Positions 25,113-48,492 are shown, counted from the stretch's first letter. The stretch is DNA of 64,000 nucleotides from Myxococcales bacterium (GCA_037441385.1 JBBISH010000004.1:1-64000), one strand, 5' to 3'. The notes: generated by a model from the sequence alone, not told the origin. Program-made: numbers and translations.

Positions 25113-26981
25113 CTACCGGCAGCACACGGCGCAAGCGCGCGGACTCTCAAAGTTGTCGGTCTGGTAGGCGGCCCACGTGGCGCCGATGCCGCCGTTGCCC
25201 GAGCAATTGGTGAGCGCGGTCTTGTCCATGCACATGGTGGCGCCCTGCTGGCCCCACGACTGCCATTCCAGGGCCGAGGTGATGTAGCCGTCGACCATGA
25301 GGGTCCAGCCGCTGGGGCAGGCGTTGCTGCCGAACTTGGTGAAGCACTGGCCGGCCGGGCGCCCAGGGCCCTGGTCGGGTGCGCACACGGCGCACGGCAT
25401 GGCGCTGTTCTGGTAGTGCGAGCAAGTGTGACGATAGCTCCACTCCACGCCGGTCCCTTGGTCGTTGGCCAAGCCGCCTTCCAGGCAGATCACGTCGTTG
25501 GCGCGGCCCCAGGTCTGCCGCTCGACCATCAGGGCCGAAGCACCGGTCGACACTGCCGACCAGCCCGTGCCGCAAGTGCTGCCGCCCCAGTGGATGTAGG
25601 TCTGGCCGCCGGTGAACTGGGCGGGGGTGTAGCCGTTCAGGGTGCCGTCGACGATCAGGTTGCCCTTGACCTGGATCTTCTTGCTCGACAGCGTCTGGAT
25701 GTTGACTGACCAGGTGAAGGTGCCGTCGAAGCCGCCCGAACCGCCGCCGGCCTTGACATCCTTGACGGTGATCGACCACGCGCCTTTGATGTTCTTGCCC
25801 ACCCAATCGCCGTTCATGTCGCCCGAGACGAGCGGCGTGTCCGTGTTGAAGTTGGTGACGAGCGAAGTGCCGGTCTTGCCGCCGTTGAACAGCACATAGG
25901 CGTTGGCCACGCCGGGGGCGTACAGCTCGACTTTGACCCCGGTGAGGTCCGAGTTGGCAATGTTCATGTTGATCCAGATCTTCTGGGCCAAACCGATGTC
26001 TGGGAAGGTCAGCGTGTCGGTCACGCCCGCGCCCAAGCCGTCGGGAATCTTGATGGTGCCGGTGCCCGCCTGCGAGTCGACAAACTGGTTGTTGATCAGG
26101 CCGTTGCTGACCTCGTCGATCCCATCGGCGGGCATATCGCCTTCGACCAGGTCCTGACACGCCAGCGAGCCGTCCGCGTTGTAGCCCTTCATGTACAGGC
26201 CGGTGCCGCACAGCTTGCCCACAGTGGGGATGCCGGGCTTGTTCGCCAAGTCGGCGTAGTCGCCCGTGGTCGCCACCTTGGCCAAGACGGGCTTGTTGGC
26301 CAGATCGGCATAGTCGCCACTGCCCGCGACCTTGGCCAGCGAGGCTGCCTTGACGTAGGCCGAAAGGTCCGTGGTTTTCGCGTAGGCCCCCAGATCAGAG
26401 GTCTTGGCGTAGGCGGCAAGGTCCGCGATCTTGGCGTAGGCGGCCAGGTCGGTGGCCTTGGCGTAGGCCGTCAGGTCGGTCGCCTTGGCGTAGGCCGCCA
26501 AATCCGTGGTCTTGGCATAGGGTTGCAGCACTGCGGCGTCGAGCGCATCGGCCTTGACACAGCCCGAGCACTCCAACGCTTCGGCCACCGCGGCGCGCAG
26601 GGCAAAGAAGGTGGCACCGGCCGGACGGCGCGGCAATTCCGGGTCCGTGGCCACTTGCACGCCGATCCACGCGTTCTGCAGGCTCAGGGCCGCTGGCGAC
26701 AACGGCGTCTTGCTGCCCAACATAATCGAGAATTCGCCGCTTTTGGCCGTGACCGCCAACGGACCTTCCGTCCAGACTGGGCTGCCGCCCACCTCGCTGG
26801 AGTAGATCGACACCGTCATGGCGTACGTCCCATCCGCCGCAGGCCCCCCGCCAGCGGAATAGAGCAGGCCTTCGATCGGCGTGGAAAGGGGCACGGCCGC
26901 CTGGGCCGGGGCCGCGGCGAGCGCGGCTCCCCCAGCCAACGCAAGCGCCGCCAGCCAGTTCGACATCCCGTGTACGCGCAT
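25113..26981 (-). CDS. Secreted fibre-like protein, paralog 1 (shaft repeats, proprotein-convertase P-like domain, C-terminal collagen-IV NC1-like double repeat)
   Basis: Signal peptide AQA; 7 nine-residue DLxAYAKxx units; LAKVAxxGDYADLANKP x2; P-domain-like KGAWSITVKD; C-terminal CAVC x2. GGAGG Shine-Dalgarno. Confidence 0.8.
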   Translation of the reverse strand: MRVHGMSNWLAALALAGGAALAAAPAQAAVPLSTPIEGLLYSAGGGPAADGTYAMTVSIYSSEVGGSPVWTEGPLAVTAKSGEFSIMLGSKTPLSPAALSLQNAWIGVQVATDPELPRRPAGATFFALRAAVAEALECSGCVKADALDAAVLQPYAKTTDLAAYAKATDLTAYAKATDLAAYAKIADLAAYAKTSDLGAYAKTTDLSAYVKAASLAKVAGSGDYADLANKPVLAKVATTGDYADLANKPGIPTVGKLCGTGLYMKGYNADGSLACQDLVEGDMPADGIDEVSNGLINNQFVDSQAGTGTIKIPDGLGAGVTDTLTFPDIGLAQKIWINMNIANSDLTGVKVELYAPGVANAYVLFNGGKTGTSLVTNFNTDTPLVSGDMNGDWVGKNIKGAWSITVKDVKAGGGSGGFDGTFTWSVNIQTLSSKKIQVKGNLIVDGTLNGYTPAQFTGGQTYIHWGGSTCGTGWSAVSTGASALMVERQTWGRANDVICLEGGLANDQGTGVEWSYRHTCSHYQNSAMPCAVCAPDQGPGRPAGQCFTKFGSNACPSGWTLMVDGYITSALEWQSWGQQGATMCMDKTALTNCSGNGGIGATWAAYQTDNFESPRACAVCCR

Positions 26982-27123
26982 GGTTCCTCCCAGATTTTAC
27001 TGCGAATCGGCGCCGCGGAATGCGCAGCCAAGGCAAGTGCGGCCAGCCCAGCATGCTCAGACTAGTGACGGCGATCGCGGCCGTCAATTTTCTTCGGATC
27101 GGCAGTGCTTTGGTGCAACTAGA

Positions 27124-27279
27124 GCACCGATCAGAAACCCAGTCCTGGGGGCAAACGTCGCGGCGGGTCGCGCCAGTGCAGCGCTCTGGGGGGCCCGCTT
27201 GCGACCCACGTGGGGCCAGCGACGCGACCGGCAGAACGATTTGCTGAACAAATGTCCAGTAATTGGTCGAGTCTCTAGG
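27124..27279. repeat. Inverted copy of module B (27124-27209) followed by a copy of module C
   Basis: The reverse complement of 27124-27209 matches 24856-24941 with only a handful of mismatches. CTGAAC..TGT.CAGTAATTGGTC..GTCTCTAGG matches 25068-25103. Confidence 0.88.
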
Positions 27280-27280
27280 G

Positions 27281-28153
27281 CTACGGCACAAACGGCGCGG
27301 TCCGCGCTGCGAGCTCGCTGGGCAAACCCGCCGCCACCCGCCGCTTGGCCTGCCAGGCTGGATAGATCTGGCTGATATGATAGGGGACGAACGTGCCCTC
27401 GAAGTCGCCCAGTTGCTGTGCCAGCACTGCCAAGTGGCTGTGCCCCTTGCCCTCTGCGTCGCACGGAGTCCGCAGACCATCCAGGAAGGTGGCTTCGTGC
27501 ATCAGGACCTCGGCCTTGCGGACCTCGGGCACCCGATCCCATAGCGTCGGCCGAGTGTCGCCCGTGATCGCCAGCAGTACCCGTTCCGAGGGCTCGGCGA
27601 CCTCGACTCCGGTCTGGGCCAGCGCGGCGATCTCAGTTTCGGGGCGATCGGCCAGGTCGGGGCGCAAGACTCGCGAGCGGGCGACCACCGCATAACCCCT
27701 TGTAGGCACGACGTGATCGGCATCAAAGGCCCGCAAAATGCGACCACCGCCCAAGTCGAACTCGTCGCCGGCGCGCACGGGCTGCAGGTGCCAGTCAAAC
27801 GCTCGCCCGTGTAGGCCTTCCCAAACGCGGACCAGCGCCATCAGCTCATCGCACGCTTCGGCAGGCGCGAGCACGCGTGCCGCCGGCAGGTGGTACATTC
27901 GCCGCAGCGCCAAAAAGCTGGGCAGCCCGCCGGCGTGGTCCATGTGGGCGTGGGTAATGGCCAAGGTCTTGCAGTGCACCATCGGTGCGGCGGCCCGCCC
28001 CACGTCAAAGCCGAGTGACCACTCGGGGATGCGGACCCAAGTCTCTACGCCCGCGACCGAAGCGCCCTCGATCGTCACGCCGATCGACTTGAGCGGCAGG
28101 CGGGCCAGTGCCAGCGCGTGAATTTCGGGTCGGTCGGCGTGCGGGCTGCCCAT
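27281..28153 (-). CDS. MBL-fold metallo-hydrolase, RNase Z-like phosphodiesterase
   Basis: GASVAGVET; THAHMDH; HVVP.RGY; TGDT; HEAT; GHSH; HISQIY. Confidence 0.85.
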   Translation of the reverse strand: MGSPHADRPEIHALALARLPLKSIGVTIEGASVAGVETWVRIPEWSLGFDVGRAAAPMVHCKTLAITHAHMDHAGGLPSFLALRRMYHLPAARVLAPAEACDELMALVRVWEGLHGRAFDWHLQPVRAGDEFDLGGGRILRAFDADHVVPTRGYAVVARSRVLRPDLADRPETEIAALAQTGVEVAEPSERVLLAITGDTRPTLWDRVPEVRKAEVLMHEATFLDGLRTPCDAEGKGHSHLAVLAQQLGDFEGTFVPYHISQIYPAWQAKRRVAAGLPSELAARTAPFVP

Positions 28154-28193
28154 GGTCGCCCTACCTGACTGGTGAGAAAGCTAGTTGCAATCC

Positions 28194-28913
28194 TTAGTTG
28201 CGCAGTCGATCTGGACGACGCGCAGCCTGCAAGGGACGTTCGGCCACCTCGACCACGGCCTCGGCGAACGCGGCCGCCGCCGCCTCGACCTCGGGCAGAC
28301 TGCCGGTCAAGTAGGCGCCGCCAAAGTTGGTCTCGGTCGGCGGCCCAAAGAACTGGCACAGGCGCACGTCGGCCGCCTTTAGGGCAGCGTCCAGGGCCAC
28401 CATCGCCTCGACCGGCGGCGCAATCAGGTAGGCGAGCGGCTCGCCACGGGAAATCCCGGCCAGACGGCTGAGGTAGCGCCCTGTCTCTGGGATGACGTGG
28501 GGAAAAAACGATACCGGCTGTGCGGCCTTGCCAGGCTTGTAGAAACAAGCGTGGCGGAGCAGGTAGTCGCGCAGCGCGCCCAGCCCTTCGGCCACTTCGT
28601 CGGGATCGGGACCGGCCAACACGCCCAGGATCTCGCCCGACAGCGGCCCCGACGAGTTGCCCGAGCCGGCGTAGAAGCTCCGCGCGTAGATCACTTCCAC
28701 ATCCGCAAACTTGGTCGCGTGATCCAAGGCGGCGTAGGTCGAATCATCTTGGTCCGCGGTCACCAATCCCAGCGACGCGTGACGGTCGCCCGCGCCCAGC
28801 TTGGCCGCCAAGGCTGGGTTGGCATTGGGAATCAGCCGGCAACTGAGCAGGGTCGGCAGGATGGGCGTCAGCCCCTGCGGCAACCACGCCGGTTCGATGC
28901 GGGAACTGTCCAT
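28194..28913 (-). CDS. eutL: Ethanolamine utilization microcompartment shell protein EutL (BMC-T)
   Basis: SLGLVTADQDD; YARSFYAG; GE; YLIAPP.EA..ALDAALKAADV; PPTETNFGG. Confidence 0.92.
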   Translation of the reverse strand: MDSSRIEPAWLPQGLTPILPTLLSCRLIPNANPALAAKLGAGDRHASLGLVTADQDDSTYAALDHATKFADVEVIYARSFYAGSGNSSGPLSGEILGVLAGPDPDEVAEGLGALRDYLLRHACFYKPGKAAQPVSFFPHVIPETGRYLSRLAGISRGEPLAYLIAPPVEAMVALDAALKAADVRLCQFFGPPTETNFGGAYLTGSLPEVEAAAAAFAEAVVEVAERPLQAARRPDRLRN

Positions 28914-28925
28914 GGCGACTCCTGC

Positions 28926-29885
28926 CTACCAGGTCCGCTGCGGGGCAGCCACGGCCAAGCCGCCCTGCCCCAACTCGCGCGCCTTCTTCAGAATCTCGGC
29001 CGCTTGCCGCGCCGCTTCGTCGACCGAGAGGCCCAGCGGCCGCACGTTGCTGATGCAGTTCTTCTCGGCATTGTCTTGGCCGATCTTGGGATTGTAGGCC
29101 AGGTACAGCGACAGCGAGTCGCCGGTGCCGAGCCCGGGCCTCTCGCCCAAGCCGATGACGGTGGCCTTGGCGCCCAGCTCCACGCCGATCTGGTCGGCGA
29201 CGGCAATGCGCGCGCGATGCACGTAGATGGGCCGGCCGGTGCTGAAACCCACCCGGGCCATTTCGCGCTGCAGGGCGGCGACCAGGCCGGGGTTGCGCTC
29301 GGCGGCCCAGGCGCTCAGGCCGTCGGCCAGGATGATCTGCACGTCCACGCCACGGGTGCCCTCTGTGCGGAGCCGCCCGAGCGAGGCGGCATCGAGGGTA
29401 CGCCCCAGGTTGGGTTGCAGCAAAAACGTCTCAAGATCGGCGGCTTGCGAATGGAGTTCGACGGCACCCAGCTGACTGACAAAGCCCTTGGTCGGGACAC
29501 TGGCCACCGCCTCTTTGGCCGTGCCGTGGTCGGCGCGCAGCGCCAAATAAGTCTTGGTGGGGTAGCGGAGGCCAGCACGGCCCACGCCGATCCGCGAAGG
29601 AGTCGCTTTGGTCAAGCGCGGCAGGGCGGCGCTGTCGGCCAGGCGATCCAAACCGGGCAGCGGTCGCCCGGGTGGCTGCGGCGCCTGAGCCCAAAGCTCG
29701 TGCGCGGCGTCGACGATCATCTGCTCGAGTGCGCGCGGTCGTATCGGCTCGTCATTGGCGTGGGGCGCCGTGGGAGAAACCGCGGAAAGCGCTGGATCTT
29801 CAAGCACCTGCCGCACGATCGCCGCAATCAGCCCGTGCAGTTCTTGGTCGGGCCCGCCCTGTTCCGTGGTCGGCTTGTGCGCCAT
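28926..29885 (-). CDS. eutC: Ethanolamine ammonia-lyase light chain with a predicted encapsulation peptide
   Basis: TPSRIGVGRAG; RADHG.AKEAV; PNLGR; DVQIILADGLS; GERPGL; CISN. Confidence 0.93.
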   Translation of the reverse strand: MAHKPTTEQGGPDQELHGLIAAIVRQVLEDPALSAVSPTAPHANDEPIRPRALEQMIVDAAHELWAQAPQPPGRPLPGLDRLADSAALPRLTKATPSRIGVGRAGLRYPTKTYLALRADHGTAKEAVASVPTKGFVSQLGAVELHSQAADLETFLLQPNLGRTLDAASLGRLRTEGTRGVDVQIILADGLSAWAAERNPGLVAALQREMARVGFSTGRPIYVHRARIAVADQIGVELGAKATVIGLGERPGLGTGDSLSLYLAYNPKIGQDNAEKNCISNVRPLGLSVDEAARQAAEILKKARELGQGGLAVAAPQRTW

Positions 29886-29945
29886 GATCGCCTTGCCCGC
29901 CGGCAGCTTGCCGGGCGCTCAGTGTGCCGCTGGGCCCAGCTAGGG

Positions 29946-31463
29946 TCAACCAGCATCCAGGGCGATGGTCATCGCGTGCAGCAGGTTGCCGTCGGGGTCG
30001 TAACTCTGGCAAATGACTTGGTGCTTGGGCTGGCTGAGGATTCGAACCACGCCGATGGTGTTCGGATCGGTGCCCAGTTGATACCACTCAGGCCACAAGT
30101 CCTTGGCAGGCATCGCGAATTTCTCGATCAAGTCCATGATCGGCGCCTGCGAGATGTCCAGGTTGGCCGCCATGTGGATCGGCGGGCAATCGGCGTCGCG
30201 GGCCTTCATGGCGCCCATGTGCGCGTCACCTGTAAGGAAAACGATGTTCTTGACTTGGCCAGTGCGGTGCAGCGCCAGGATCTGGTCGCGCTCGGTGGGA
30301 TAGCCGCACCAGCTGTCGCCCAGGGCCTCGATGACCGCGCCCACCGGCGTCTCGTGGATGGCCTTGTTCATCACGGCGTCGTAGCGCGGGTTGATCTCGA
30401 CCGGCATGAACACGAATTTCCACAGCGCCTTCGAGTTCTTCAGGCCCGTGATCAGCCAGTTCAGCTGCTCTGAGCCCAACATGGTATGGCCCGGCGGCTC
30501 GGCAAAGGTGTAGACCAGCTTGCCCTCGGCGCTCATCTGCGACGACAGCGCCTTTTTCAGGTCACTGCGCTGCGATCGCATGTCGACCAAGAAGAAATCG
30601 CAATGGCCCACGCTGAACTGCTGCCAGACTCCGGCCTTGGACTTGGGCAGGACGTGACACGGCAGATAGCGCTCAAAGGCCGCCATGCGGTCGCTCTGCT
30701 TGCCGGTGACGCCGCTCCAGGCGTTGTTTTCGGCAAAGTCATGGTCGTCCCAGACGTGGGCCACCGGCATGGTGGCCAGCAGGTCGCGCAGCGGGTAGCC
30801 GTCCATCAAACGGCGCCGCCACGACTTGGCGATCTCTTCTGGGTAGACCGTGTAGTTGTTGCCGGCAGCGTCGGTGCCCTTGGTCGCAAACGCGTAGTCC
30901 GGATAGGTCCAGTCGCCGATCTGCGCGAAAAACCACGGCTTGGGCGACAACTTGCGGACCACATCAAACACCTTGCCCATGCTCTTGGTGCCGACGCCCT
31001 TGTCGTCGTAGCGGCAGCACGAGCCAAAACTAAACAGGAAATCCGTGACTTGGCCCGGCTTGGCATAGGTGCGGGTCTGGATGGTGCGCGCGGCGACCGC
31101 GGCGTCGTCGATGACCGGTACGGCGCTATACTCGGTCGCGGGACTCAGCCCCGGCACATCCAAGACCACTGAGAAATCATCGGTTTGACTGGCTACGGCG
31201 CAAGTCGAGCGCAGCGTCTTGCCGCCAGCGGCCGTCACGTCGAAGGCGACCTTGGCTGGGCCGCTCAGGCGTACCGCCAAGCGCACGCTGGTGGCGCTGC
31301 AGCCGCCCGAGATCGGCCCGTGGGTGATGGTGGCGCCGCCGCCAACGGGACTGCAGACCTTGGGCGCCGGTGCGGCGGGCGTGGCCGTTTCGCTTTCGCA
31401 CGCGGCGACGGCACTGGAAGCGGCGAGCAATTGGAGCAGTTGCCGTCGTGAGAGCTGGGTCAT
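29946..31463 (-). CDS. phoD: PhoD-family alkaline phosphatase/phosphodiesterase, Tat lipoprotein
   Basis: SRRQLL twin-arginine signal plus VAAC lipobox; FGSC; GDWTYPD; WDDHDF; MLGSEQ..WL; DSW.GYP.ER; TGDAH. Confidence 0.9.
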   Translation of the reverse strand: MTQLSRRQLLQLLAASSAVAACESETATPAAPAPKVCSPVGGGATITHGPISGGCSATSVRLAVRLSGPAKVAFDVTAAGGKTLRSTCAVASQTDDFSVVLDVPGLSPATEYSAVPVIDDAAVAARTIQTRTYAKPGQVTDFLFSFGSCCRYDDKGVGTKSMGKVFDVVRKLSPKPWFFAQIGDWTYPDYAFATKGTDAAGNNYTVYPEEIAKSWRRRLMDGYPLRDLLATMPVAHVWDDHDFAENNAWSGVTGKQSDRMAAFERYLPCHVLPKSKAGVWQQFSVGHCDFFLVDMRSQRSDLKKALSSQMSAEGKLVYTFAEPPGHTMLGSEQLNWLITGLKNSKALWKFVFMPVEINPRYDAVMNKAIHETPVGAVIEALGDSWCGYPTERDQILALHRTGQVKNIVFLTGDAHMGAMKARDADCPPIHMAANLDISQAPIMDLIEKFAMPAKDLWPEWYQLGTDPNTIGVVRILSQPKHQVICQSYDPDGNLLHAMTIALDAG

Positions 31464-31603
31464 GCGGACCTTGCCGGGGCTGCGGCCTGTTTTGGTCGCG
31501 AACCCGGAATTTGCGCCCGCGCGGCCGACCTTGCAACTGGTTCCGATCCGTGGCAAAGGCTGCGACGCGCGGGTGGCAGTGCCTGCCCGGTTGGCCAAAG
31601 CCC

Positions 31604-31670
31604 GTGACAAGGTCTGTGACAAGGTCTGTGACAAGGTCTGTGACAAGATCTGTGAGAAGACTCGTGACAA
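31604..31670 (+). repeat. 12-bp tandem repeat (GTGACAAGGTCT) about 5.5 units
   Basis: Three exact units then degenerate units, in the divergent region between phoD and the Cys-rich lipoprotein gene. Confidence 0.92.
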
Positions 31671-33013
31671 TTCGCCACACACTGTGGAAATTTGCCACGT
31701 TCGGGCGACGGTTCCTGCCGTGGCTTTTTGCCACAGGGCTGTTGCACGGCTGCTTTGGCCGCGGCGAGATCGGCGACGCCTGCGCCAAGCGGTCGGATTG
31801 CCGGGGCGAGCTGGACTGCTACGCCGGCCTGTGCAGCGAACCGGATATGTGCCGGCGCACGCCCAGTTGCGCCAAGCGCGGCGTCTGCACCGCCCACGGG
31901 CACAACTGCATCGTGGCCCAGCGCCGCGATTGCGAGTACGCCGAGGTCTGCGCGCAAGCGGGCCTCTGCTCGGCCGTAGACGGTAGCTGCGCCGCCACCT
32001 CGGACAGCGACTGCGAAGGCTCGGCAGCGTGCCGCGGCGAGGGCCTGTGCCGCGCGGATCACGGCCGATGCGAGGTGGGCGGCACTTCGCGCAGCCGCTG
32101 CGGCGACGCATGCGACACGTGGGGGCGCTGCGCCGTGGACGCCAAGGGCCTGTGCGTGGTGGGCGCAGACACCTGCCGCTCGTCGTTCCGCTGCAGCGAG
32201 TTCGGCGAGTGCGGCCGAGCCCTTCTGCCCGGCGCCGCCAGCCCAACCTGCGCCGCAGAAGACGACGCCGGCTGCCAAGCCAGCAGCTTGTGCGCGCGCA
32301 CCGGGGCGTGCAAGGCCGTGGACCACCGCTGCCTGGCGGCGAGCGACGCCTGGTGCGCCCGCTCCAAGGGCTGCCGCGACCAGGGCGCCTGCACGGCGGT
32401 CGACGGCACCTGCGTGCCCGCAGGCGAGGACTGCCGCAAACGCAAGGAGTGCCGTGACTTTGGGGCCTGTTCGGCGCTGAATGGGCGCTGCCAGGCGGTG
32501 TCGTCGGGCGACTGCGAAGCGAGTCGCGTCTGCCGCGAGCAGGCCCGCTGCACCGCCCGCGATGGCGTGTGCCAAGTGTTCCGCGACACCGACTGCCGCA
32601 GTCACGCCGCCTGCCGCCGCGACGGCTGGTGCAGTGCCCGCGAAGGCAAGTGCACGGCTGCGAATCGCGACGACTGCCTGGGCAGCCAGGTGTGTCGCGA
32701 ACAGGGGCGTTGCACCGCCAAAGACGGCCGCTGCGTGGTAGAGACGCGCCAAGACTGCCTGCAGAGCCTGGCATGCGCGATCGAGGGCCGCTGCCGGCCG
32801 GTGAGCGCCCTGGCCGAAGAGCTGGCGGGCTGGCGGCCGGTCGGCTTGGCGGGCGACGCGAGCGAGACCACCTGCGGGGTGCGCGCCAACAGCGACTGCC
32901 GACGTTCGCAAGCCTGCAGCGAGGGCCGGCGCTGCTACGCCCGCCGAGGCGAGTGCGTGACGCGGCAAGAGCTGCAAGACCATGGGCAAAGTCCCGGTGC
33001 CGCGCTACCATAG
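31664..33013 (+). CDS. Cys-rich tandem-repeat lipoprotein (about 25-aa repeats, DC-xx-S-xx-C-xxx-G-x-C-x-A-x-DG-x-C)
   Basis: Lipobox LHGC; more than 10 four-Cys repeats. Start is ambiguous among the in-frame GTGs of the tandem repeat. Confidence 0.75.
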   Translation: MTIRHTLWKFATFGRRFLPWLFATGLLHGCFGRGEIGDACAKRSDCRGELDCYAGLCSEPDMCRRTPSCAKRGVCTAHGHNCIVAQRRDCEYAEVCAQAGLCSAVDGSCAATSDSDCEGSAACRGEGLCRADHGRCEVGGTSRSRCGDACDTWGRCAVDAKGLCVVGADTCRSSFRCSEFGECGRALLPGAASPTCAAEDDAGCQASSLCARTGACKAVDHRCLAASDAWCARSKGCRDQGACTAVDGTCVPAGEDCRKRKECRDFGACSALNGRCQAVSSGDCEASRVCREQARCTARDGVCQVFRDTDCRSHAACRRDGWCSAREGKCTAANRDDCLGSQVCREQGRCTAKDGRCVVETRQDCLQSLACAIEGRCRPVSALAEELAGWRPVGLAGDASETTCGVRANSDCRRSQACSEGRRCYARRGECVTRQELQDHGQSPGAALP

Positions 33014-33047
33014 GGCCCAGACGGCGAGCCGCGAACCCGGAGGCAGT

Positions 33048-33440
33048 ATGGAGATCCAAGGAGCAGGCGGAACCCCTGGCGGAATCGGCCATTTCGTGGT
33101 GGGCAGCGGACTGGCGGCGGGTGGCCTGTACTTGCTGTTTTCGCGGGTGGTCGTCTCGGCCGGCATGTGGCACGGCTACTTTGGCGCCCACTACGGCGCG
33201 GGCGGCTCGATTGGCACGGTCACGGTGCCGTTCATCGCTGGCGTGGGCCTGTTGTTCTTTGACGCCCGGTCGCGGCTCGGCTGGCTGATGCTGGCGGGCA
33301 GTCTGGTGCTGCTGGCGGTCGAGGTGATCACCAGCCTGCAAATCCACTTCATGCCCACCACGCTGCCGACTCTGCTGGTGATGCTGGGACTGATCGGGGG
33401 CGGGCTGGGGATGATTGCTCGCTCGTTCCGGGCGTCCTAA
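33048..33440 (+). CDS. Conserved small 4-TM membrane protein (GAGGT.GG N-terminus)
   Basis: GGAGG Shine-Dalgarno; four hydrophobic segments. Confidence 0.75.
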   Translation: MEIQGAGGTPGGIGHFVVGSGLAAGGLYLLFSRVVVSAGMWHGYFGAHYGAGGSIGTVTVPFIAGVGLLFFDARSRLGWLMLAGSLVLLAVEVITSLQIHFMPTTLPTLLVMLGLIGGGLGMIARSFRAS

Positions 33441-33459
33441 CGTGTCCCTAGAGGACGCC

Positions 33460-34251
33460 ATGACAAAAACGCCGACCATTTTGCTGGTGGGTGGGCTCGA
33501 TCCCGGCGGACAGGCCGGGCTTGCCGCAGATCTGGAAGTGTGCGCCCTGCGCGGCGCCCTGGGCCGGCCGGTGATCGCCGCCCGCACGGCCCAGACGGAC
33601 GGCCGCTGGCTGGGTGCCTGGCCCACCATGCCCGACGAGTTCCAACTGACCCTGACGGCTGCGCTGGCCGACGACCGCCCGCGGGTGGCCAAGACCGGCA
33701 TGCTCGCCACGCTGGAAAATGCCCGGCATTTGGCGCACGTGGCCCGCGAACGCGGCCTGGCGCTGGTGGTGGACCCGCTGCTGCGCACCACCTCGGGTGG
33801 CTGGGTGTGGCGCGAGCCGGATGGCGGGGAACTGGCTCAAACGGCGGTCCGCGCGCTGTTTTTGCGCGAACTGCTGCCCAACTGTGCGGTGGTGACGCCC
33901 AACTGGCCCGAGTTGGCCTGGCTGGTTGGCGCGGCGGAAGCGACCAGCCTAGAGGGGGCACTGCAGCAGGCCCACCAGTTGCCGTGTCCGGTGCTGCTGA
34001 AGGGCGGCCACGCCCCCAAGCCCTGGCTGGGTCAAGACGTTTTGGTCATGAAAGGCCAAGTGCTGCCCCTGCCGTCCAAGTTGGGCTGGCCACCGCGACC
34101 CGATGGAACGCCCAGCCATCTGCGCGGGACGGGCTGCCGACTCGCGACCGCCTTGGCGATCGAACTGGCCAAGGGGACGCCACTGCTCCCGGCCGCCGCC
34201 CATGCCAGCGAGTGGTTGGACCAGTGGGCGCTGGCGCGACTTTTGCCGTAG
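33460..34251 (+). CDS. thiD: Hydroxymethylpyrimidine/phosphomethylpyrimidine kinase
   Basis: GLDPGGQAGLAAD; KTGML; VVDP; VTPNWPE; LKGGH; RGTGC. Confidence 0.82.
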   Translation: MTKTPTILLVGGLDPGGQAGLAADLEVCALRGALGRPVIAARTAQTDGRWLGAWPTMPDEFQLTLTAALADDRPRVAKTGMLATLENARHLAHVARERGLALVVDPLLRTTSGGWVWREPDGGELAQTAVRALFLRELLPNCAVVTPNWPELAWLVGAAEATSLEGALQQAHQLPCPVLLKGGHAPKPWLGQDVLVMKGQVLPLPSKLGWPPRPDGTPSHLRGTGCRLATALAIELAKGTPLLPAAAHASEWLDQWALARLLP

Positions 34252-37259: not shown

Positions 37260-37306
37260 CCTAGCCTACCGACGCGCCGGGCACCATCCCAGGCGTTCAC
37301 CGGCGA

Positions 37307-40271: not shown

Positions 40272-40291
40272 CTCGATTCCAACATTCGCGC

Positions 40292-40371: not shown

Positions 40372-40486
40372 GCCCGCAGGCAAGGGATCTGGGCGACGAG
40401 GCTGTGGCAGGACCGGCCCACGCCGCCCTGGCGCCCCTGCCCAAAACGCTTAACCTATAGGCGGGCGGCAAAGCGGAGGCGCAATC

Positions 40487-40945: not shown

Positions 40946-40980
40946 GTCCAATTGTAGCGAAGTCCGCCCCGACTACCGCC

Positions 40981-43029
40981 CTACGGCTTGTCGTTGGGGG
41001 CGCACAGGTACTTGGTGGTCGAGTAGCTGCAAGTGCCGTCGTTGAACTGGATGTTGTTCGGGTCCCAGTTGTACATCGACAGCCAGCAGTTGGCGCCGTA
41101 GTCGCCGTTGGGCTCGCTGTAGGTCGAGTCGCGCAACCACCACTTGCCGCCGTCTGCCACCTTCCAGTCCGCGCAGCCCGAGCCGTAGGCCTTGGGATCG
41201 CGCATGACGCAGCCGGTGTAGCTGCCCGAGCCAGAGTCGCGGTAGACGCCCGGGATGGTGGCGAAGTAGCTGGTGCCGTACTTGTTCAGCATGGCGGTCC
41301 ACTGGCCCTTGGTGCGCGGATAGACGATGTCCCAGCCGTAGTCCTTGCAGCTATTGTCGTCGGTGGACTTGTAGGTGGTCTTGCCCGAGTCGATGGGCAA
41401 GTAGGTGTAGCCGCCGCCGTCGGTGGTCATGTCGCAGAACACCTGGAATACCTGGCCCTTGGGCGCTTTGACCCAGAAGCTGCCGTCTTTGGCCGTGGCC
41501 CCGTCGTTGGTCCAGCTCTTCTGGATGTCCAGACACGAAATGCCGGGCTTGGCCTTGATGAGACCCAGCGAGGCGATGCACGTGGAGCTGCAGCCGTCGC
41601 CGTTGGCGTTGTTGCCGTCGTCGCATTCTTCGTTGACGTCCAAGATGCCGTTGCCGCAGCTGTCGGCCAAGGTTTTCCACACGGTGCCATCGCAATAGCG
41701 CAGGGTCTTGGCGGTCTTGTCGAAGTACATGGCGCCCATCGTAGAGGGCTGGCACGGCACGGGCGCCGAGGTGGCCGGCGTCATCACCAAGGCCCCCGAC
41801 ACGGAAACCTTCTTGCTGGACAGGGTGTTGACGGTGATGGTCCAGCTGTTCAGCGCGCCGTCCGTCTTGGGATTGCCCGTGGCGGCGGCCAAGTCGGCCA
41901 CGTTGATCGACCAACTGCCCTTGGGGTTTTTGCCCACCCAGGTGCTCAAGTCGCCCGACACCAGCTTGTCCGGCGTGGGGTAGGTGGCGACCAGCTTGGT
42001 GCCGGTGCCGCCCTGGTCGTAGAGCTTGTAGGCGGTGCCGGCCGGATCGTAAACGGTGACGCGCACTTTCGAGATGTCGGAGTTGGCCAGGTCGACCGAG
42101 ACGGTCAGGCTTTGGGCGGTGCCGAAATCGGGCACGGTGATGGCGTCGGAGATGCCGGCCGGGAGGTTGTCGGCAATGGCGATCGGCGTGGCCGTGCTGG
42201 GCGCGATTTCGGCGAATTCGGTCGAGAGCAGACCATTGGACACCTCGTTCAGGCCGTCGGGCGGCAGTCCGCCGGCGGTGCAGTCCAAGCTGCCGTCGGC
42301 CTTGATGCCCTTGACGACCAGACCGGTGCCGCAACTGCTGTTGACTTTGGCCATCACGGGTACGTCAAGCAGATCGAGGTAGCTACCCGACTTGGCCACA
42401 GTTGCATACGTAGGCGTATTCTTTAGGTCTTTGTAGTCGCCGGTGCCTGCAACGGCCGCCAGGGCGGCGGCCTTGACGTAGTCGGCCAGATCGGTCGTCT
42501 TGGCAAACCCACTCAAATCTGCGGACTTGGCATACGCCGCCAGATCGCTGGTCTTGGCGTAGCCCTGCAGCAGCGCCGGATCCAAGTGGCCGGCCTTGAT
42601 GCAGCCCGAGCACTCCAGGCCTTCGGCCATCGCGCTGCGAATGGCGAACAGCACGCCGCGGACGGGGATGGTGGGCAGGGGCGCGTCGGTGGCCACCTGG
42701 ACCTGCAACCACCGATCACCGGTGAGCAGCGCCGCGGTCAACGGCGTCTTGGCGCCCAGCACGTGCGAGAACGAGCCGCCCTTGACGGTGATGTTGGTCG
42801 GTCCTTCGGTCCAGACCGGCTGGCCAGCCGCGGCGTCGAGCAGCGAAAACGTCAGCGGGTAGATTCCGTCGCTCACCGGACCGCCGCCGGTCGAAGACAG
42901 CGCGCCCTCGATCGCAGTGGTGGTGGGCACCGCCGCGCGGGCCGGGGCCGCAAACAGGCCCACAGCCGACAGCAGCCCCAGGGAAGTGAGAACCTTGGCC
43001 GACAGCGACGAAAAGGTGGAGTTCTTCAT
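40981..43029 (-). CDS. Secreted fibre-like protein, paralog 2 (P-domain; myxobacterial Cys-rich repeat; fibrinogen-like and C-type-lectin-like C-terminus)
   Basis: N-terminal half aligns with paralog 1; CGNGILDVNEECDDGN; FCDMTTDGGGYT; SEPNG...C...FNDGTC....KYLC. Confidence 0.8.
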   Translation of the reverse strand: MKNSTFSSLSAKVLTSLGLLSAVGLFAAPARAAVPTTTAIEGALSSTGGGPVSDGIYPLTFSLLDAAAGQPVWTEGPTNITVKGGSFSHVLGAKTPLTAALLTGDRWLQVQVATDAPLPTIPVRGVLFAIRSAMAEGLECSGCIKAGHLDPALLQGYAKTSDLAAYAKSADLSGFAKTTDLADYVKAAALAAVAGTGDYKDLKNTPTYATVAKSGSYLDLLDVPVMAKVNSSCGTGLVVKGIKADGSLDCTAGGLPPDGLNEVSNGLLSTEFAEIAPSTATPIAIADNLPAGISDAITVPDFGTAQSLTVSVDLANSDISKVRVTVYDPAGTAYKLYDQGGTGTKLVATYPTPDKLVSGDLSTWVGKNPKGSWSINVADLAAATGNPKTDGALNSWTITVNTLSSKKVSVSGALVMTPATSAPVPCQPSTMGAMYFDKTAKTLRYCDGTVWKTLADSCGNGILDVNEECDDGNNANGDGCSSTCIASLGLIKAKPGISCLDIQKSWTNDGATAKDGSFWVKAPKGQVFQVFCDMTTDGGGYTYLPIDSGKTTYKSTDDNSCKDYGWDIVYPRTKGQWTAMLNKYGTSYFATIPGVYRDSGSGSYTGCVMRDPKAYGSGCADWKVADGGKWWLRDSTYSEPNGDYGANCWLSMYNWDPNNIQFNDGTCSYSTTKYLCAPNDKP

Positions 43030-43072
43030 GCCGCACAGCCTAGCGCGGCCGCCAGCATAGGACAAGGAAGGA

Positions 43073-44323
43073 CTACGAAATTCGCCGGCGGCCGTGCCGC
43101 GAGCGCAGCTCCCGCTCGACCTGATCCAAAGTCAGGCCCAGCGACACCAATTTGACCATGCTAAAGAACAGCACGTCCGCGGTCTCCCACACCACGTCGC
43201 GGTCGCTGTGGGCGCGGACCAGCTCGTCGGCCTCTTCGCGGATCTTGGCATGGAGCAGCTTGCGGTCGGCGAAAAGCCGCGAAGTGTAGGCGCCGGGCTC
43301 GGGGCGATCACGCCGCTCGCGCAACACCCGCTCGAGCTGGTGCAGATCGAAGCGCTGCGGCCCAAAGCAGGACCGCTGCGGCAAGTGGCAGGCCTCGCCC
43401 GTCTGTTCCACGCGGTACAGCAGGCAGTCACGGTCGCAATCCCACCGCACCGCTTGCACGTGCTGGACGTGTCCCGAAGTTTCGCCCTTTTTCCAAAGCT
43501 CTTGCCGCGAGCGCGAAAAGAACGTGCCGCGGCCGGTCTTGAGCGTCTCGATCACCGCCTCGCGGTTGGCCCAAGCAAACATCAGCACTTGCGAATCGTC
43601 TTCGACGACGACGGGCATGAGATCGCCGGTCTTGGCCCAATCGAGCAGACTGACATACGCCTCGGCCAGGTCGAGCTTGCCGGTGTACAGCGCCATGCCC
43701 AGCTGGCTGTTGGCCCCCAACTTGTCGATCGCCGCAATTTCTTGAACCGTGGTGATGCCGCCCGCGGCCGTGATGGTGTTGCGCGTACTGGCGCAAACCT
43801 CGGCAATGGCCGGCAGATCCGCGCCTTGCATCAGGCCCTCGCGGTCGACCACCGTAAAGAGGTATTCGCTGCAATAGGGGGCCAGGCGGCTACAACGCTC
43901 GAGCGCCGTCTCGCCCGCCGTGGCAGTCCAGCCGTGCGTGGCCACGCGACCGCCTTTTTGATCGATGGCGACGATCAACTGCTCGCGGGCGTAGCGCTGC
44001 AGGAATTCTGGAGTCGCCGCGGTGCCAATGATGATCTTGCGGGCGCCAGCGCGCAGAAGCCGGTCCGCGCGGCCATGGTCGCGAATGCCGCCGCCCACCC
44101 GCGCGTCGACCTTGGCCAGGATGCGCTCGATGGTGGCCAGATTGTCGCCGCGGCCCAGCGCCGCATCCAAATCGATGATGGCCACCTCGCCGTAGCGCGA
44201 AAACTCCTGCGCCAAGGCCACTGGATCGTCGACCACCACCGCGCAGTCGTCGGGGTTGCCCTGGCGCAACTGCACGGCCTTGCCGCCCATCAGATCGATC
44301 GAAGGAATCAACATCTCGCTCAC
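43073..44323 (-). CDS. hisA/hisIE: HisA-HisI-HisE fusion (isomerase, PR-AMP cyclohydrolase, PR-ATP pyrophosphatase)
   Basis: IPSIDLMGGKAVQL.QG, VGGGIR and AAGGI (HisA); FSRSRQELWKKGETSG, DCDRD and ACH (HisI); YTSRLF...KIREEA.E and ETADVLF (HisE). Confidence 0.92.
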   Translation of the reverse strand: MSEMLIPSIDLMGGKAVQLRQGNPDDCAVVVDDPVALAQEFSRYGEVAIIDLDAALGRGDNLATIERILAKVDARVGGGIRDHGRADRLLRAGARKIIIGTAATPEFLQRYAREQLIVAIDQKGGRVATHGWTATAGETALERCSRLAPYCSEYLFTVVDREGLMQGADLPAIAEVCASTRNTITAAGGITTVQEIAAIDKLGANSQLGMALYTGKLDLAEAYVSLLDWAKTGDLMPVVVEDDSQVLMFAWANREAVIETLKTGRGTFFSRSRQELWKKGETSGHVQHVQAVRWDCDRDCLLYRVEQTGEACHLPQRSCFGPQRFDLHQLERVLRERRDRPEPGAYTSRLFADRKLLHAKIREEADELVRAHSDRDVVWETADVLFFSMVKLVSLGLTLDQVERELRSRHGRRRIS

Positions 44324-44356
44324 CCACTGGCTGCGGACCAGGCCGCGGCGCCCCCG

Positions 44357-45112: not shown

Positions 45113-45160
45113 AGAAATCCTTGATCCAGTGGGCAAAGGCCGTTGCTGGGCGGCGGGCGT

Positions 45161-45760
45161 CTAGGCCAACCGCAGCCAGGCCGCCAAGTAATCCAGCCCG
45201 GCTTGGCCAGACTTTTCGGGGTGGAATTGCACAGCACACAGGTTGTCTTGGCGCACCGCCGCGGCAAACGGCACGCCGTAGTCGGCCAGCGCCGTGACGG
45301 CGTCGCCCAGGGCTGGCGCGTAGTAGCTGTGGACGAAATAGTAAAATTGACCTGGACTTTCAAGGCCACATGGGTGTGGCTCGGCCGGCGCGCGCAGCTG
45401 TTGCCACCCCACGTGCGGCACCGGCAGCCCCGGCGCAAAGCGATGGCACTGGCCGGGCAGCAGGCCCAGGCCGGCCACACCCGGCGCCTCGTCGCTGGCC
45501 TGGTACAGCAACTGCAACCCCAGGCAGATGCCCAAGAACGGCTTGCCGCTCTGGAGCGATTGCCGCAGGGCCGGCAGCAGGCCACTGGCCTGAAGTTGCC
45601 GCATCGCCTGTGCAAAATGGCCCTGACCGGGGAAGACCACGTGGCTGGCTGTCCGCAATTGGTCGGGATCGCGGACGAGCTGGGCGTCGCCCCCCAAATG
45701 GCGCAGCGCGCGCACCACGCTCGCGACGTTGCCGGCACCGTAGTCGACCACAGCAATCAA
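45161..45760 (-). CDS. hisH: Imidazole glycerol phosphate synthase glutamine amidotransferase subunit
   Basis: DYGAGN; PGQG; GICLG; VPHVGW; YFVHSY; QFHPEKS. Confidence 0.96.
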
Positions 45761-45925
45761 CGTCCACTCCTTGCGTTGGCTGGGTCAAACTCCCGCCATC
45801 GGCGCTACCACGCGGCCGGCAAGCCTACGGGCAAGTACGGCGCTCGTAAAGGCCTTGGCCCCTTGCCGCGGCGCACCGCGTTGCCGGATGGGGGCGAAAC
45901 GGCTACCGTGCGGCCGGAGCGCGCC

Positions 45926-46675
45926 ATGACCGACGACAAGCAAGACAACCAGGACCTGCCCAGACTCAGCAAGCGGATGGCCGAGCTGGGCCTGTGTTCG
46001 CGGCGCGAGGCCGACGACTACATCGCCCGCGGCTGGGTCAAGATCGATGGCGTGGTGGCCACTTTGGGCACGCGCGTGCGGCGCGGTCAGAACATCGAGC
46101 TGGACAGGCGTGGCTCAGCCGTGCAGCAACAACGCGCGACCATTTTGCTCAACAAACCCATCGGCTTTGTCTCTACGCAGCCCGAGCATGGCTACCGCGC
46201 CGCCGTGGAGTTGGTGCTGCCCGAAAACCGCGATCCGCAGTACCTCGGTCCGCCGCTGCGCCGCGAGCACCTGCGCGATCTGTCGGTGGCGGGGCGACTG
46301 GACATCGACTCGACCGGGCTGCTGGTGCTGACCCAGGATGGCCGCGTCGCCCGCCAGCTCATTGGCGAAGACCGCACCATGGACAAGGAGTACTTGGTGC
46401 GCGTAGAGGGGCAATTGCCCCAGGGCGGCCTGGAGTTGCTGCGCCACGGCCTGTCGCTCGACGGCGAGCCGCTGCTGCGCGCAGAGGTCGAGTGGCTCAA
46501 CCGCGACCAGCTGCGCTTTGTGCTGCGCGAGGGCAAGAAACGCCAGATTCGCCGCATGTGCGAGGCCGTGGGCCTGCGCGTGGTGGGCCTAAAGCGGGTG
46601 CGGGTCGGGCGCGTCAAGCTGGGCAAGCTGCAGCTTGGAATGTGGCGATTCCTGGGCGACGACGAGGTCTTTTGA
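45926..46675 (+). CDS. rRNA pseudouridine synthase, RsuA/RluF family with an S4 domain
   Basis: [43 protein letters not shown]. Confidence 0.93.
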
Positions 46676-46686
46676 CCGCTACCCGC

Positions 46687-48492
46687 CTACTTGCCGACCA
46701 TCCACGCGTAGTAGCGGTCGTAGTCCCACTCTAGACCGGTGCCCGTCAAGTCCAAGCTGCCGCTGGCAAATCCGGCCCACAGGCGATGCATGTTGTAGGT
46801 CGACGCCAAGAAGTAGGGCGCGGTCTTGAGGACCAACGTGGACGACGTGTTGGCCGGGAACGTGACATTTTGACAATTGGTGTTGACCGTGTTGGTGGTC
46901 AGGGTCCAGACGGCCATGCCATTGAGGGCCAAGCTGGCGCCGTAAGTGGCGTTCATCGAAGAGTAATTGGCGCAGATGCTGCGCGTGACGGCGGCGGCGG
47001 TCGGATTCTTGATAAAGACCACCACATACTGCCGGCTGTGGTCGGTGCTGGACGAGGTGTAGCCAAGACCGCGATGAAACTGGATGTTGCCCTTGCTGTC
47101 GGCCCAGTGCAGTTCGCTCACGGCGTTGTGCAAGGCGGCATTGTCGCTGTAGGGCACGGCGGCGGCCGTGTCGTACTTGGTGCCCACCAGGGCGTTGCCG
47201 GCCATGGCGTCGATGTATTCGCCGTACAGGACCGGTCGCGAGCCGGCCGGGAACAGCAGCCGCGCCTGGGCCGAAGCGCCCACCGTTAAGTTGCCGGTCA
47301 CGCTCAGGTCGCCCGTGATGGTTTGATTGCCGGTCAGGTTGACCGCACCATTGACCGCCAGCTTGGACTTGGAGTTGGTCACGATCTTGAGCGACCAAGT
47401 GAACTTGCCATCGTCCGCGGTAGCGACATTGTCCAGGACATCGCGCACGACCAGCGACCAAGTGCCCTTGAGGTCCTTGCCCAGCCAATCCGCGTTGAGG
47501 TCGCCGCTGACCAGGCCCAAGTCCTGATTGAAATTGACGGTCATCGTCGTGCCGGTCTTGCTCCCGTCGTACAAAACGTACGGCGTGGCGTTGCCCGGCG
47601 CGTACAAGTCGACCTTGACCTTGGACACATCGCTATTGGTCGCGGTAAAGGCGATCCACAGCTGCTGCGTGTTGCCCGTAGAGGGTACGGTGATGGTGTC
47701 GGTCACGCCAGCGCCCAGGCCATCGGGGATGCCCTTGTTGGTCGAACCGGCAAAGCTGTCTGTGAATTGGGTCGAGAGGACGCCATTCGAGATCTCGTCC
47801 AAGCCGTCTGCGGGCAGGCCGCTGGCCGAGATGGCGCTGGTCGCGCACTCGTAGCTGCCGTCGGCCAAGATGCCTTTCATGACCAAGCCGGTGCCGCATG
47901 ACTTGCCCACTTTGGCCAAGACGGGAACGCCCTTGAGGTCGCCAAAGTTGCCGGTACTGGCCACGTCGGACAGCGTGGCCACCTTGGCGTACTGGGCGAG
48001 ATCGGTGGCCAGGGCAAAGCCGCTCGTCACCTCGGGAGCGAGTTGCTTGAGGCCAATGCAGCCCGAGCAGTCCACCGACTCGGACACAATGGTTCGGACT
48101 GAAAACGGCACGGATGTCAGTTGCTTGCGCGCCAGCTCCGGCTCTTGGCCCACGGCGATCCCTACCCAAGCCGCCGAGGCCATGACCGAGGGCGGCAAGG
48201 CCTTGGTCACGCCCAAGTTGGCAGAGAACATGCCGTTCTTGATGCCGACGGTCAGCGGCCCCTCGAACCAGAGCGGGGTGCCGCCCGACTGATCCTTGTA
48301 CAGCGCGAAGGTGAGGTCGTAGGCGCCGTCTGGGGCAGCGCCGCCCGACGAGGTGATGGCCCCGGTCACGCCAAGGACGCTGGGGGCCGAGGCCAGGGCT
48401 TCGCGGGAGCCGGCCAGGCTGGCGAAAGCGACGAGCGTCATTGTGAGCACCAGCGACCACGACGGGAAACGCTGCAGGATCTTGGACATCAT
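46687..48492 (-). CDS. Secreted fibre-like protein, paralog 3 (P-domain; beta-strand shaft repeats; unknown C-terminal domain)
   Basis: Same chassis (DGAYDLTFALY...GG.PLW.EGP; DCSGCI; CGTGLVMKG; LPADGLDEISNG); VNLTGNQTITGDLSVTGNLTVG repeats. Confidence 0.8.
   Translation of the reverse strand: MMSKILQRFPSWSLVLTMTLVAFASLAGSREALASAPSVLGVTGAITSSGGAAPDGAYDLTFALYKDQSGGTPLWFEGPLTVGIKNGMFSANLGVTKALPPSVMASAAWVGIAVGQEPELARKQLTSVPFSVRTIVSESVDCSGCIGLKQLAPEVTSGFALATDLAQYAKVATLSDVASTGNFGDLKGVPVLAKVGKSCGTGLVMKGILADGSYECATSAISASGLPADGLDEISNGVLSTQFTDSFAGSTNKGIPDGLGAGVTDTITVPSTGNTQQLWIAFTATNSDVSKVKVDLYAPGNATPYVLYDGSKTGTTMTVNFNQDLGLVSGDLNADWLGKDLKGTWSLVVRDVLDNVATADDGKFTWSLKIVTNSKSKLAVNGAVNLTGNQTITGDLSVTGNLTVGASAQARLLFPAGSRPVLYGEYIDAMAGNALVGTKYDTAAAVPYSDNAALHNAVSELHWADSKGNIQFHRGLGYTSSSTDHSRQYVVVFIKNPTAAAVTRSICANYSSMNATYGASLALNGMAVWTLTTNTVNTNCQNVTFPANTSSTLVLKTAPYFLASTYNMHRLWAGFASGSLDLTGTGLEWDYDRYYAWMVGK

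Follow-up and report, generated by a model that had tools for sequence, protein, structure and literature searches.

The closest described counterparts of the proteins analyzed here are the mosaic adhesive trimers (MATs) of Bdellovibrio bacteriovorus HD100, a family of 21 paralogs that share a conserved, beta-rich domain at the N terminus, behind the signal peptide (PMC10769870, Caulton et al. 2024). According to that paper, MATs are trimeric fibers displayed on the cell surface and carry S74 or non-S74 (NS74) tips, including TNF-like and C-type-lectin folds; a tip exchange between Bd2133 and Bd1334 is described, and one tip binds N-acetylglucosamine (GlcNAc) and Proteus glycans. Here, we analyzed a 64,000-nucleotide stretch of DNA from a Myxococcales bacterium (GCA_037441385.1, JBBISH010000004.1:1-64000; referred to as the window) that encodes three modular proteins, A, B, and C, which share an N-terminal chassis and end in three unrelated C-terminal tips. 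A first-pass annotation had likened them to MATs, an apt analogy; Table S3 of the same paper ("diverse MAT proteins") already includes a 559-amino-acid protein from a Myxococcales metagenome-assembled genome (MAG) as MAT-like.

A tblastn search of the window with residues 1-440 of A revealed 47.6% identity to B over 450 amino acids (E = 3e-110) and 40.6% identity to C over 431 amino acids (E = 5e-89), but no fourth copy of the chassis. This similarity exceeds chance by far. The chassis accounts for 60-71% of each protein (A, 440 of 622 residues; B, ~412 of 682; C, ~383 of 601), close to the ~60-70% that had been estimated. A three-way alignment also reproduced the motif order proposed earlier, with a signal peptide followed by a beta-rich N-domain, a CSGC motif, 9- and 18-residue repeats, a Cys-bracketed hairpin, and a P-domain jelly roll. 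Homology was said to stop past TLSSKK/TNSKSK, which is indeed the case, and the three parts beyond this point are unrelated (blastp E ≥ 0.14). Across 81 family members, the cysteines C138, C141, C258, and C275 (A numbering) are invariant, and A28 and P31 are nearly so. Read by eye, each N terminus is a basic-hydrophobic-AxA segment in which A-x-A is followed by AVP; the ATG starts named previously for B and C (43029 and 48492) yield such signal-peptide-like N termini, and the start of B is backed by an ortholog of 685 amino acids at a syntenic locus in another genome (L064). The G+C content at third codon positions (GC3) of A, B, and C is 0.81-0.88 and matches that of real genes elsewhere in the window.

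Stalk length varies among the paralogs because repeat copy numbers differ. DLxxYAK units occur six times in A, three times in B, and once in C, and SGxYxDL units twice each in A and B and once in C (regular-expression counts). At the DNA level, Tandem Repeats Finder (TRF) detected repeats of 27 bp (6.4 copies, 26349-26521) and 54 bp (1.9 copies, 26234-26338) in A and of 27 bp (2.8 copies, 42485-42558) in B. In the long relatives P0126 (1749 amino acids), P0180 (2495 amino acids), P0207, and P0217, the SGxYxDL repeat region is matched 11-21 times, and much longer stalks can hence be built from the 18-residue repeat.

The tails of 120 family members were cut at the end of the chassis and clustered by single linkage (blastp E ≤ 1e-5, ≥50% coverage; two tail-less truncated proteins were excluded). 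This yielded 18 tail classes: T1 with 44 members (including C), T2 with 30 (including B), T3 with 14, T4 with 7, T5 and T6 with 4 each, T7 and T8 with 3 each, T9 consisting of A and one other protein, and nine singletons. The nearest chassis neighbor belongs to the same tail class in 81 of 119 cases, and 58 of the 139 pairs with ≥80% chassis identity are of the same class. Two of the nine pairs with ≥90% chassis identity bear unrelated tails (P0032/P0036, 96.6%; P0031/P0035, 95.3%). In near-identical chassis pairs, identity in 20-column windows is 95-100% up to ...QTLSSKKIQ[IV]KGNLIVDG and then drops to ≤20%. Since chassis that are 95-97% identical end in unrelated tails and similarity is lost abruptly at the junction, closely related chassis have had their tips exchanged, which bears out the earlier proposal of a conserved chassis with swapped C-terminal tips.

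Mapped onto a FastTree phylogeny of 119 chassis, tail class undergoes 41 changes, a count that errors of the tree could inflate; the minimum is 17, and 200 shuffles gave 59-76 changes (mean, 67.4). Since the observed value lies between these bounds, tail class is partly inherited, yet has been replaced many times. Within T1, chassis that are 85-96% identical carry tails that are just 35-46% identical, which suggests either exchange between variants of the same class or faster divergence of the tails. The L064 locus is syntenic with locus B and keeps HisA, HisF-HisIE, and acyl-CoA dehydrogenase in the same order (91%, 93%, and 79% identity). Its fiber protein is 80% identical to B over the full length, with 77.1% identity in the chassis and 81.9% in the tail. 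As this ortholog keeps the B tip, "swapped" is to be understood as family history and not as ongoing fast variation; judged from these sequence comparisons, the mosaic documents duplications and replacements in the past and shows no sign of ongoing hypervariation.

A, B, and C belong to a large, unnamed family from uncultured Myxococcota. A word-seeded search with residues 30-440 of A found 403 relatives at E ≤ 1e-3 among 8000 scored candidates. The best 120 of these are 45-74% identical to A and almost all unnamed; the few named ones are termed "hypothetical" or "proprotein convertase P-domain-containing protein." A profile search of 1.84 billion cluster representatives (50% identity) returned 1212 matches at E ≤ 1e-30; the 26010 and 47734 matches at E ≤ 1e-10 and E ≤ 1e-3 probably include proteins that share one repeat or a single domain.

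In contigs representing one genome per species, there were 527 pattern matches, of which 498 encode relatives. The 80 best of these 498 correspond to 75 loci in 14 assemblies, with at least 12, 11, 11, 9, 5, 5, 4, 4, 3, 3, 3, 2, 2, and 1 loci per assembly, all of them lower bounds since only the best 80 were counted. The number of paralogs per genome, which the first-pass annotation had left to be established, is thus at least 9-12 loci in each of the four richest Myxococcota MAGs. Two or more chassis open reading frames (ORFs), and up to four, are present in 17 of the 75 loci. Among the same best 80 relatives, the closest to A is 73% identical, and the genome from which the window derives is therefore absent from these contigs. 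According to their titles, eleven assemblies are Myxococcota, Myxococcales, or Deltaproteobacteria MAGs, one is from Proteobacteria, and two are from "uncultured Enterobacteriaceae." The loci from the latter (L052, L058, L067, and L072; CAYURO01... and CAYHHL01...) resemble Myxococcota MAG loci in their match statistics, which are near-identical between L052 and L053 and between L058 and L056/L059; the label is probably wrong.

An AlphaFold2 (AF2) monomer model of A was built on the 81-member family alignment. The N-domain (residues 30-125) was predicted as all-beta with a predicted local distance difference test score (pLDDT) of 93-98, and residues 290-435 reached a pLDDT of >90, while the tail fell below 50; no beta-helix was predicted in the stalk. 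The N-domain had no match in Pfam, NCBIfam, phage DNA (tblastn), or the PDB fold library (Foldseek). In the ESM Atlas, it matched clusters of its own family at 0.93-0.94, and the named leads, at 0.77-0.80, lay below the threshold. Whole protein A gave one chance-level match to an arginine deiminase among PDB sequences (E = 0.06), and the whole model gave long, high-rmsd, low-TM alignments against BFVD (Foldseek) that we judged uninformative. The absence of a C-terminal S74 chaperone, postulated earlier, was corroborated, as Pfam detected no S74 domain in the three window proteins and 21 further members and the SDxxxK motif does not occur in A, B, or C.

P-domains are known from subtilisin-like proprotein convertases. 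Residues ~290-435 of A match the P-domains of Aeromonas ASP, Kex2, and furin (Foldseek against the PDB, E = 1.7e-5 to 1e-3), and the PF01483 cut-off of 21 bits is exceeded by B alone, with A (13.9 bits) and C (14.2 bits) below it. The P-domain assigned to the chassis in the first pass therefore holds up, on the fold of A and the Pfam score of B. A, B, and C share the jelly-roll fold, and B also PF01483, with kexin, furin, and Aeromonas ASP but, unlike these enzymes, lack a peptidase S8 catalytic domain (Pfam); a convertase or protease reading was rejected on this ground. Here, the P-domain serves as a stand-alone structural module.

A likeness to phage tail fibers had been claimed for the N-terminal domain as well as for the repeats. 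It stands for the repeats: residues 196-280 of A, comprising 18-residue repeats, match proteins annotated as tail fiber, long tail fiber, tail, or structural in 17 phage records (tblastn, E = 5e-7 to 9e-4), from Ralstonia phiRSL1, PA5oct-like Pseudomonas phages, and a Synechococcus phage. It does not stand for the N-domain. PHROG matches to the chassis of A and B are confined to residues 153-260, and the chassis of C gave one weak PHROG match only (E = 0.0018), at N-terminal residues 31-60. Against PDB sequences, the stalk gave chance-level matches (E ≥ 0.57). In sum, the proteins resemble phage tail fibers and receptor-binding proteins in their ..SGxYxDLxxKP repeats, in tip B (see below), in one member with a phage Collar domain, and in the exchange of tips by recombination at conserved junctions, but differ from them in being chromosomal and signal-peptide bearing, in lying amid housekeeping genes, and in an N-domain that, in A and B, has no phage match.

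Each of the three tips was then compared with known domains. Tip B matches the NCBIfam model NF040941 (GGGWT_bact) with 42 bits against a cut-off of 30 and stays below the Pfam cut-offs for Fibrinogen_C (17.4 versus 22) and COLFI. Among PDB sequences, phmmer matched it to intelectin-1 (E = 4e-7, tail residues 96-185 only) and, also over part of the tail, to XEEL, a serum lectin, and tenascin fibrinogen-like domains. It further matches PHROG 15727 (E = 1.8e-39) and virion structural proteins of S-PM2-, S-CAM4-, and P-RSM6-type cyanophages (cyanomyoviruses; tblastn E = 4e-22 to 2e-26). By sequence, tip B belongs to the fibrinogen-related/X-type lectin (intelectin) domains. Tip C has no Pfam match. 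Its AF2 model, built on 38 sequences, is a beta-sandwich (pLDDT, 87.6; predicted TM score, 0.82) with the carbohydrate-binding modules (CBMs) CBM35/36/6, PA14 sugar-binding domains of RTX and flocculin adhesins, and the lambda gpJ tip as best PDB folds, and in this model tip C looks CBM/PA14-like.

Tip A is carried by six family members (jackhmmer over the retrieved proteins), and a word-seeded search with this tail recovered the query alone. It is a tandem duplication of ~90-amino-acid halves, each ending in C-A-V-C (hhalign, 98.6%, E = 1.4e-15); there are 12 cysteines in the copy from the window, against 8-10 in the remaining five. When a profile of the six tails was compared with the PDB, collagen IV NC1 chains were the top 6 of 13 matches, with E values of 4.5e-5 and 1.3e-4 against engineered triple-NC1 constructs and alignments that pass through CPxG..LYxG and CAVC. 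The nearest ESM Atlas cluster bears C4 (0.76) and is rated a lead only. True homology of tip A to NC1 is plausible, though not established, on these profile matches. Like animal ficolins, intelectins, collagen IV NC1, and the fibrillar collagen C-propeptide, the proteins end a stalk in a C-terminal globular head, and tip A shares with NC1 the tandem two-subdomain build with CAVC closing each half. In contrast to animal collagens, A, B, and C have no G-x-y stalk (sequence scan), the single-chain NC1 similarity is marginal, and Pfam C4 is unmatched.

Pfam identified further heads among 21 other members, namely TLDc (5e-20), phage Collar (6e-13), ALK/LTK-GRD (1.6e-7), and a full-length Fibrinogen_C (2.6e-15). 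Representatives of T3 and T4 had no Pfam match, and those of T3, T4, and T6 had no match among PDB sequences. With an intelectin/fibrinogen-like tip in B, a CBM/PA14-like fold in C, and a collagen IV NC1-like tip in A, the tips look like binding heads, as the first-pass annotation had it.

Set beside the NS74 subgroup of MATs, the family is alike in having a signal peptide and then a conserved beta-rich N-terminal domain, an elongated, phage-fiber-like middle part, scattered genes, many paralogs per genome, and diverse exchanged tips that include lectin folds. The proteins analyzed here differ from the MATs of that account in being shorter (about 550-1000 amino acids), in a stalk of 9- and 18-residue repeats in place of a beta-helix, in the lack of the capping-loop motif and of any S74 member seen, and in a chassis that includes a P-domain jelly roll and whose stalk is bracketed by two pairs of invariant cysteines; their heads are fibrinogen/intelectin-, NC1-, CBM/PA14-, TLDc-, and ALK-GRD-like. 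Bd2734 and Bd2740 are likewise listed there without beta-helix domains. Homology of the N-domain to those of MATs is unproven, and by analogy the family resembles MAT-like mosaic adhesins.

On balance, and with a confidence only a little above even, we read A, B, and C as paralogs of a Sec-exported modular fiber family in which a chassis is combined with an exchangeable binding head. The constant chassis would present the variable C-terminal head, which would be attached through the conserved linker QTLSSKK-IQVKGNLIVDG, and repeat copy number would set the length of the stalk. Duplication followed by recombination at the linker would have placed many unrelated heads on close chassis, leaving each genome with a repertoire of at least a dozen specificities. 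The proteins would be extracellular fibers, probably held at the cell surface and oligomeric, that bind glycans or surface epitopes of prey, particles, or kin, and the family would correspond, in myxobacteria, to the MAT adhesins of Bdellovibrio. Trimerization, anchoring by the N-domain, export across the outer membrane, and ligand binding would all be parts of this scheme, and the two invariant Cys pairs could staple the chains together.

Several findings weigh against this scheme. No membrane anchor, lipobox, or sorting tag was seen in A, B, or C, the genes adjoining them are unrelated housekeeping genes, and no conserved partner gene was seen around them; with neither anchor nor partner, surface retention is unexplained. 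In the monomer model, the stalk of A (residues 135-260) has a pLDDT of 46-67, and a fiber is neither shown nor excluded by it. The MAT capping-loop motif VG[GN]xxxPxxxL has 0 matches in A, B, and C (regular expression), the solved MAT tips named in Table S2 of PMC10769870 are absent among the Foldseek matches listed for A and tip C, and no relatives of the N-domain were found among proteins of 1090-3110 amino acids, which is weak evidence. The Foldseek matches to the tip C model score poorly (E = 1e-4 to 2e-3, TM 0.2-0.4), the tip A profile reaches only E = 0.045-0.55 against single NC1 chains, and Pfam C4 (PF01413) has no match in tip A. Finally, at the orthologous loci B and L064, the tip is as conserved as the chassis, and rapid arms-race variation is unsupported.

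The missing anchor would also fit free soluble lectins or agglutinins, analogous to ficolins and intelectins, in which the N-domain could, for example, bind a second ligand or act as a cross-linker. A signal peptide is seen, yet no anchor, lipobox, or sorting signal, tip B resembles the soluble lectins intelectin-1 and XEEL, and no conserved partner gene was found. The N-domain, however, is strictly conserved in every member, suggesting a common docking site, and we consider soluble lectins unlikely. In MATs, the N-terminal domain has been proposed, not proven, to hold the fiber on the cell (PMC10769870, Discussion).

The stability of the orthologous tips, in turn, is what would be expected of structural proteins, and the proteins could be secreted matrix or self-assembly components whose heads (NC1-, COLFI/fibrinogen-, and CTHRC1-like) mediate oligomerization or a network between fibers, in the manner of animal collagens, for social behavior or biofilm formation; foreign surfaces would then not be recognized. 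Collagen IV NC1 is a head-to-head assembly domain, and it is matched by the tip A profile; COLFI-like matches in T2 (P0016, 4.1e-9; P0109, 1.6e-7) and a weak, below-cut-off CTHRC1_C match in T6 (0.0035; Pfam) point the same way. However, the matches to COLFI span just ~48 of the 233 positions of the profile, the relatives of tips B and C are lectins, CBMs, and adhesin domains, and 18 unrelated heads that have been replaced time and again are better accounted for by a set of specificities than by a single matrix, which makes a matrix role quite improbable in our estimation. Polymorphic toxins with variable C-terminal toxin domains, or prophage tail-fiber remnants, would share the conserved N-terminal part with its sharply bounded variable C terminus and the phage relatives of the stalk repeats and tip B, respectively, but both were rejected as highly improbable: neither the three tips nor 21 representatives matched a toxin or enzyme family (Pfam and NCBIfam), no conserved small ORF lies downstream (the genes 3' of A and C are convergent housekeeping genes), a domain scan found no phage genes in the 64-kb window, the proteins bear signal peptides, which phage fibers, to our knowledge, lack, and locus B is chromosomal and syntenic between two genomes. 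We retain probably surface-held fibers with exchangeable binding heads as the favored reading of A, B, and C, whose features are compiled in Table 1.

Table 1. Positions of the three fiber genes and their parts in the window (aa, amino acids)
Feature	Coordinates	Strand	Basis
Gene A (622 aa): chassis + NC1-like tip	25113..26981	-	ORF and translation, alignment, family search
A putative signal peptide, residues 1-28, ...APAQA followed by AVP	26898..26981	-	Read from sequence; A28/P31 conservation
A N-terminal beta-rich domain (predicted), residues 29-135	26577..26897	-	AF2, all strands
C-S-G-C at stalk base, residues 138-141	26559..26570	-	Invariant C138/C141, 81 sequences
A stalk: six 9-residue DLxxYAK + two 18-residue LAxVAxxGDYADLxxKP	26211..26558	-	TRF, regular expression
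Cys-bracketed hairpin CGTGL..KG..ADGS..C, residues 258-275	26157..26210	-	Invariant Cys; strands 262-267, 273-277 (AF2)
A P-domain-like jelly roll, residues 283-437	25671..26135	-	pLDDT >90, Foldseek; Pfam weak (0.061)
Junction QTLSSKKIQVKGNLIVDG, residues 429-446, tip-exchange boundary	25644..25697	-	Identity drop; part of family consensus
Tip A: tandem-duplicated, Cys-rich, collagen IV NC1-like	25116..25643	-	Six members, profile, hhalign, ESM Atlas lead
Gene B (682 aa): chassis + fibrinogen/intelectin-like tip	40981..43029	-	ORF and translation, alignment, syntenic L064 ortholog at 80% identity
B P-domain, residues 307-399	41833..42111	-	Pfam PF01483, E = 3e-6, 27.7 bits versus cut-off 21
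B Cys-rich acidic repeat (DUF4215/myxo_disulf_rpt), residues 456-484	41578..41664	-	Pfam 8.5e-6; NCBIfam TIGR02232 1e-10
Tip B: fibrinogen-like/X-type-lectin-like, residues 498-681	40987..41538	-	NCBIfam, PDB sequences, PHROG
Gene C (601 aa): shortest-stalk chassis + beta-sandwich tip	46687..48492	-	ORF and translation, alignment, repeat counts
Tip C: commonest class T1, CBM/PA14-like beta-sandwich (predicted)	46690..47346	-	AF2, Foldseek

The window has a G+C content of ~66%, and a domain scan identified its genes as chromosomal housekeeping and envelope genes, among them AcrB/OEP efflux, topoisomerase, hisA/hisF-hisIE, pseudouridine synthase, acyl-CoA dehydrogenase, EutC plus a BMC shell protein, and O-antigen-type genes. 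Gene B begins downstream of the hisF-hisIE fusion on the same strand, after a gap of 43 bp (43030-43072), and L064 keeps this arrangement with a 44-bp gap (2885-2928) between the his gene and the fiber gene. Because the short same-strand gap is kept at the syntenic locus, gene B may be co-transcribed with the histidine biosynthesis genes. The adjoining ORF at 43073-44323 (-) combines His_biosynth (HisF-like), PRA-CH, and PRA-PH domains, i.e., it encodes a three-domain HisF-HisI-HisE fusion.

With antisense artifacts set aside, only two families recur beside the fiber genes, namely Dicty_CTDC-repeat proteins, at 14 of the 75 loci, and Ser/Thr kinases, at 5 of them, and neither was judged an obligatory partner. 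The former family has kin in the window, where a secreted-looking protein of 1212 amino acids with Dicty_CTDC (2.6e-14) and a PQQ_2 beta-propeller is encoded at 11763-15401 (+), ~10 kb from A; the related protein that flanks a fiber gene in those 14 loci combines Dicty_CTDC with RCC1 (e.g., L007:4-2739, -). Dicty_CTDC proteins may constitute another expanded group of extracellular, Cys-rich proteins in the clade, and their linkage to the fiber genes may be due to chance. Elsewhere in the window, at 28194-29885 (-), an EutC-like ethanolamine ammonia-lyase light chain gene adjoins the BMC shell protein gene, with no clear EutB found in the domain scan. The upstream long ORF at 29946-33791 has a PhoD-like match confined to its C-terminal part and mixed GC3 signals; within this ambiguous ORF, a 12-bp tandem repeat, GTGACAAGGTCT, is present in 4.7-5.6 copies with 91-95% matches (31604-31670). 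A fragment of a DDE transposase (PF01609), to which the C-terminal part of the model alone was matched, lies at the left edge of the window (28-696, +).

Literature searches (tail fiber/adhesin/predation; fibrinogen-like in myxobacteria) returned no published description of this Myxococcota fiber family, and the seven papers found on mosaic adhesive trimers deal with Bdellovibrio and like organisms. Neither the concept nor the occurrence of MAT-like proteins in Myxococcales MAGs is new, while the present chassis and head repertoire are undescribed. Mosaic adhesive fibers have so far been characterized in Bdellovibrio alone, and how other bacterial predators recognize their prey is an open question. 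The family comprises more than 1000 sequence clusters, is present in at least a dozen copies per genome, and goes without a proper name in the source annotations. It would add a second system, distinct in architecture, whose presenting and binding portions are set apart by a clean, conserved junction; owing to this junction, the heads are easy to catalog and to assay singly. They form a reservoir of unexplored lectin-like folds, including T3 and T4, for which neither Pfam nor PDB sequences gave a match.

The collagen IV NC1 domain, for which a pre-animal origin is discussed in a preprint (10.1101/2021.10.08.463732), may have a bacterial relative in the tip A class. A bolder proposal, which we advance tentatively and hold to be possible rather than probable, is that an uncultured freshwater/groundwater clade of Myxococcota carries, on fibers with a chassis of their own (N-domain, phage-like stalk bracketed by disulfides, and P-domain platform), a true NC1 (C4) head together with fibrillar-collagen-propeptide/fibrinogen/intelectin-, CTHRC1-, and ALK-GRD-like heads. 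If true, these heads would be bacterial counterparts of domains held as hallmarks of the animal extracellular matrix and innate immunity. NC1 and the design of a stalk with a C-terminal oligomerizing or lectin head, as in collagens, ficolins, and intelectins, would then have a prokaryotic pool, which would bear on the origin of basement-membrane collagen.

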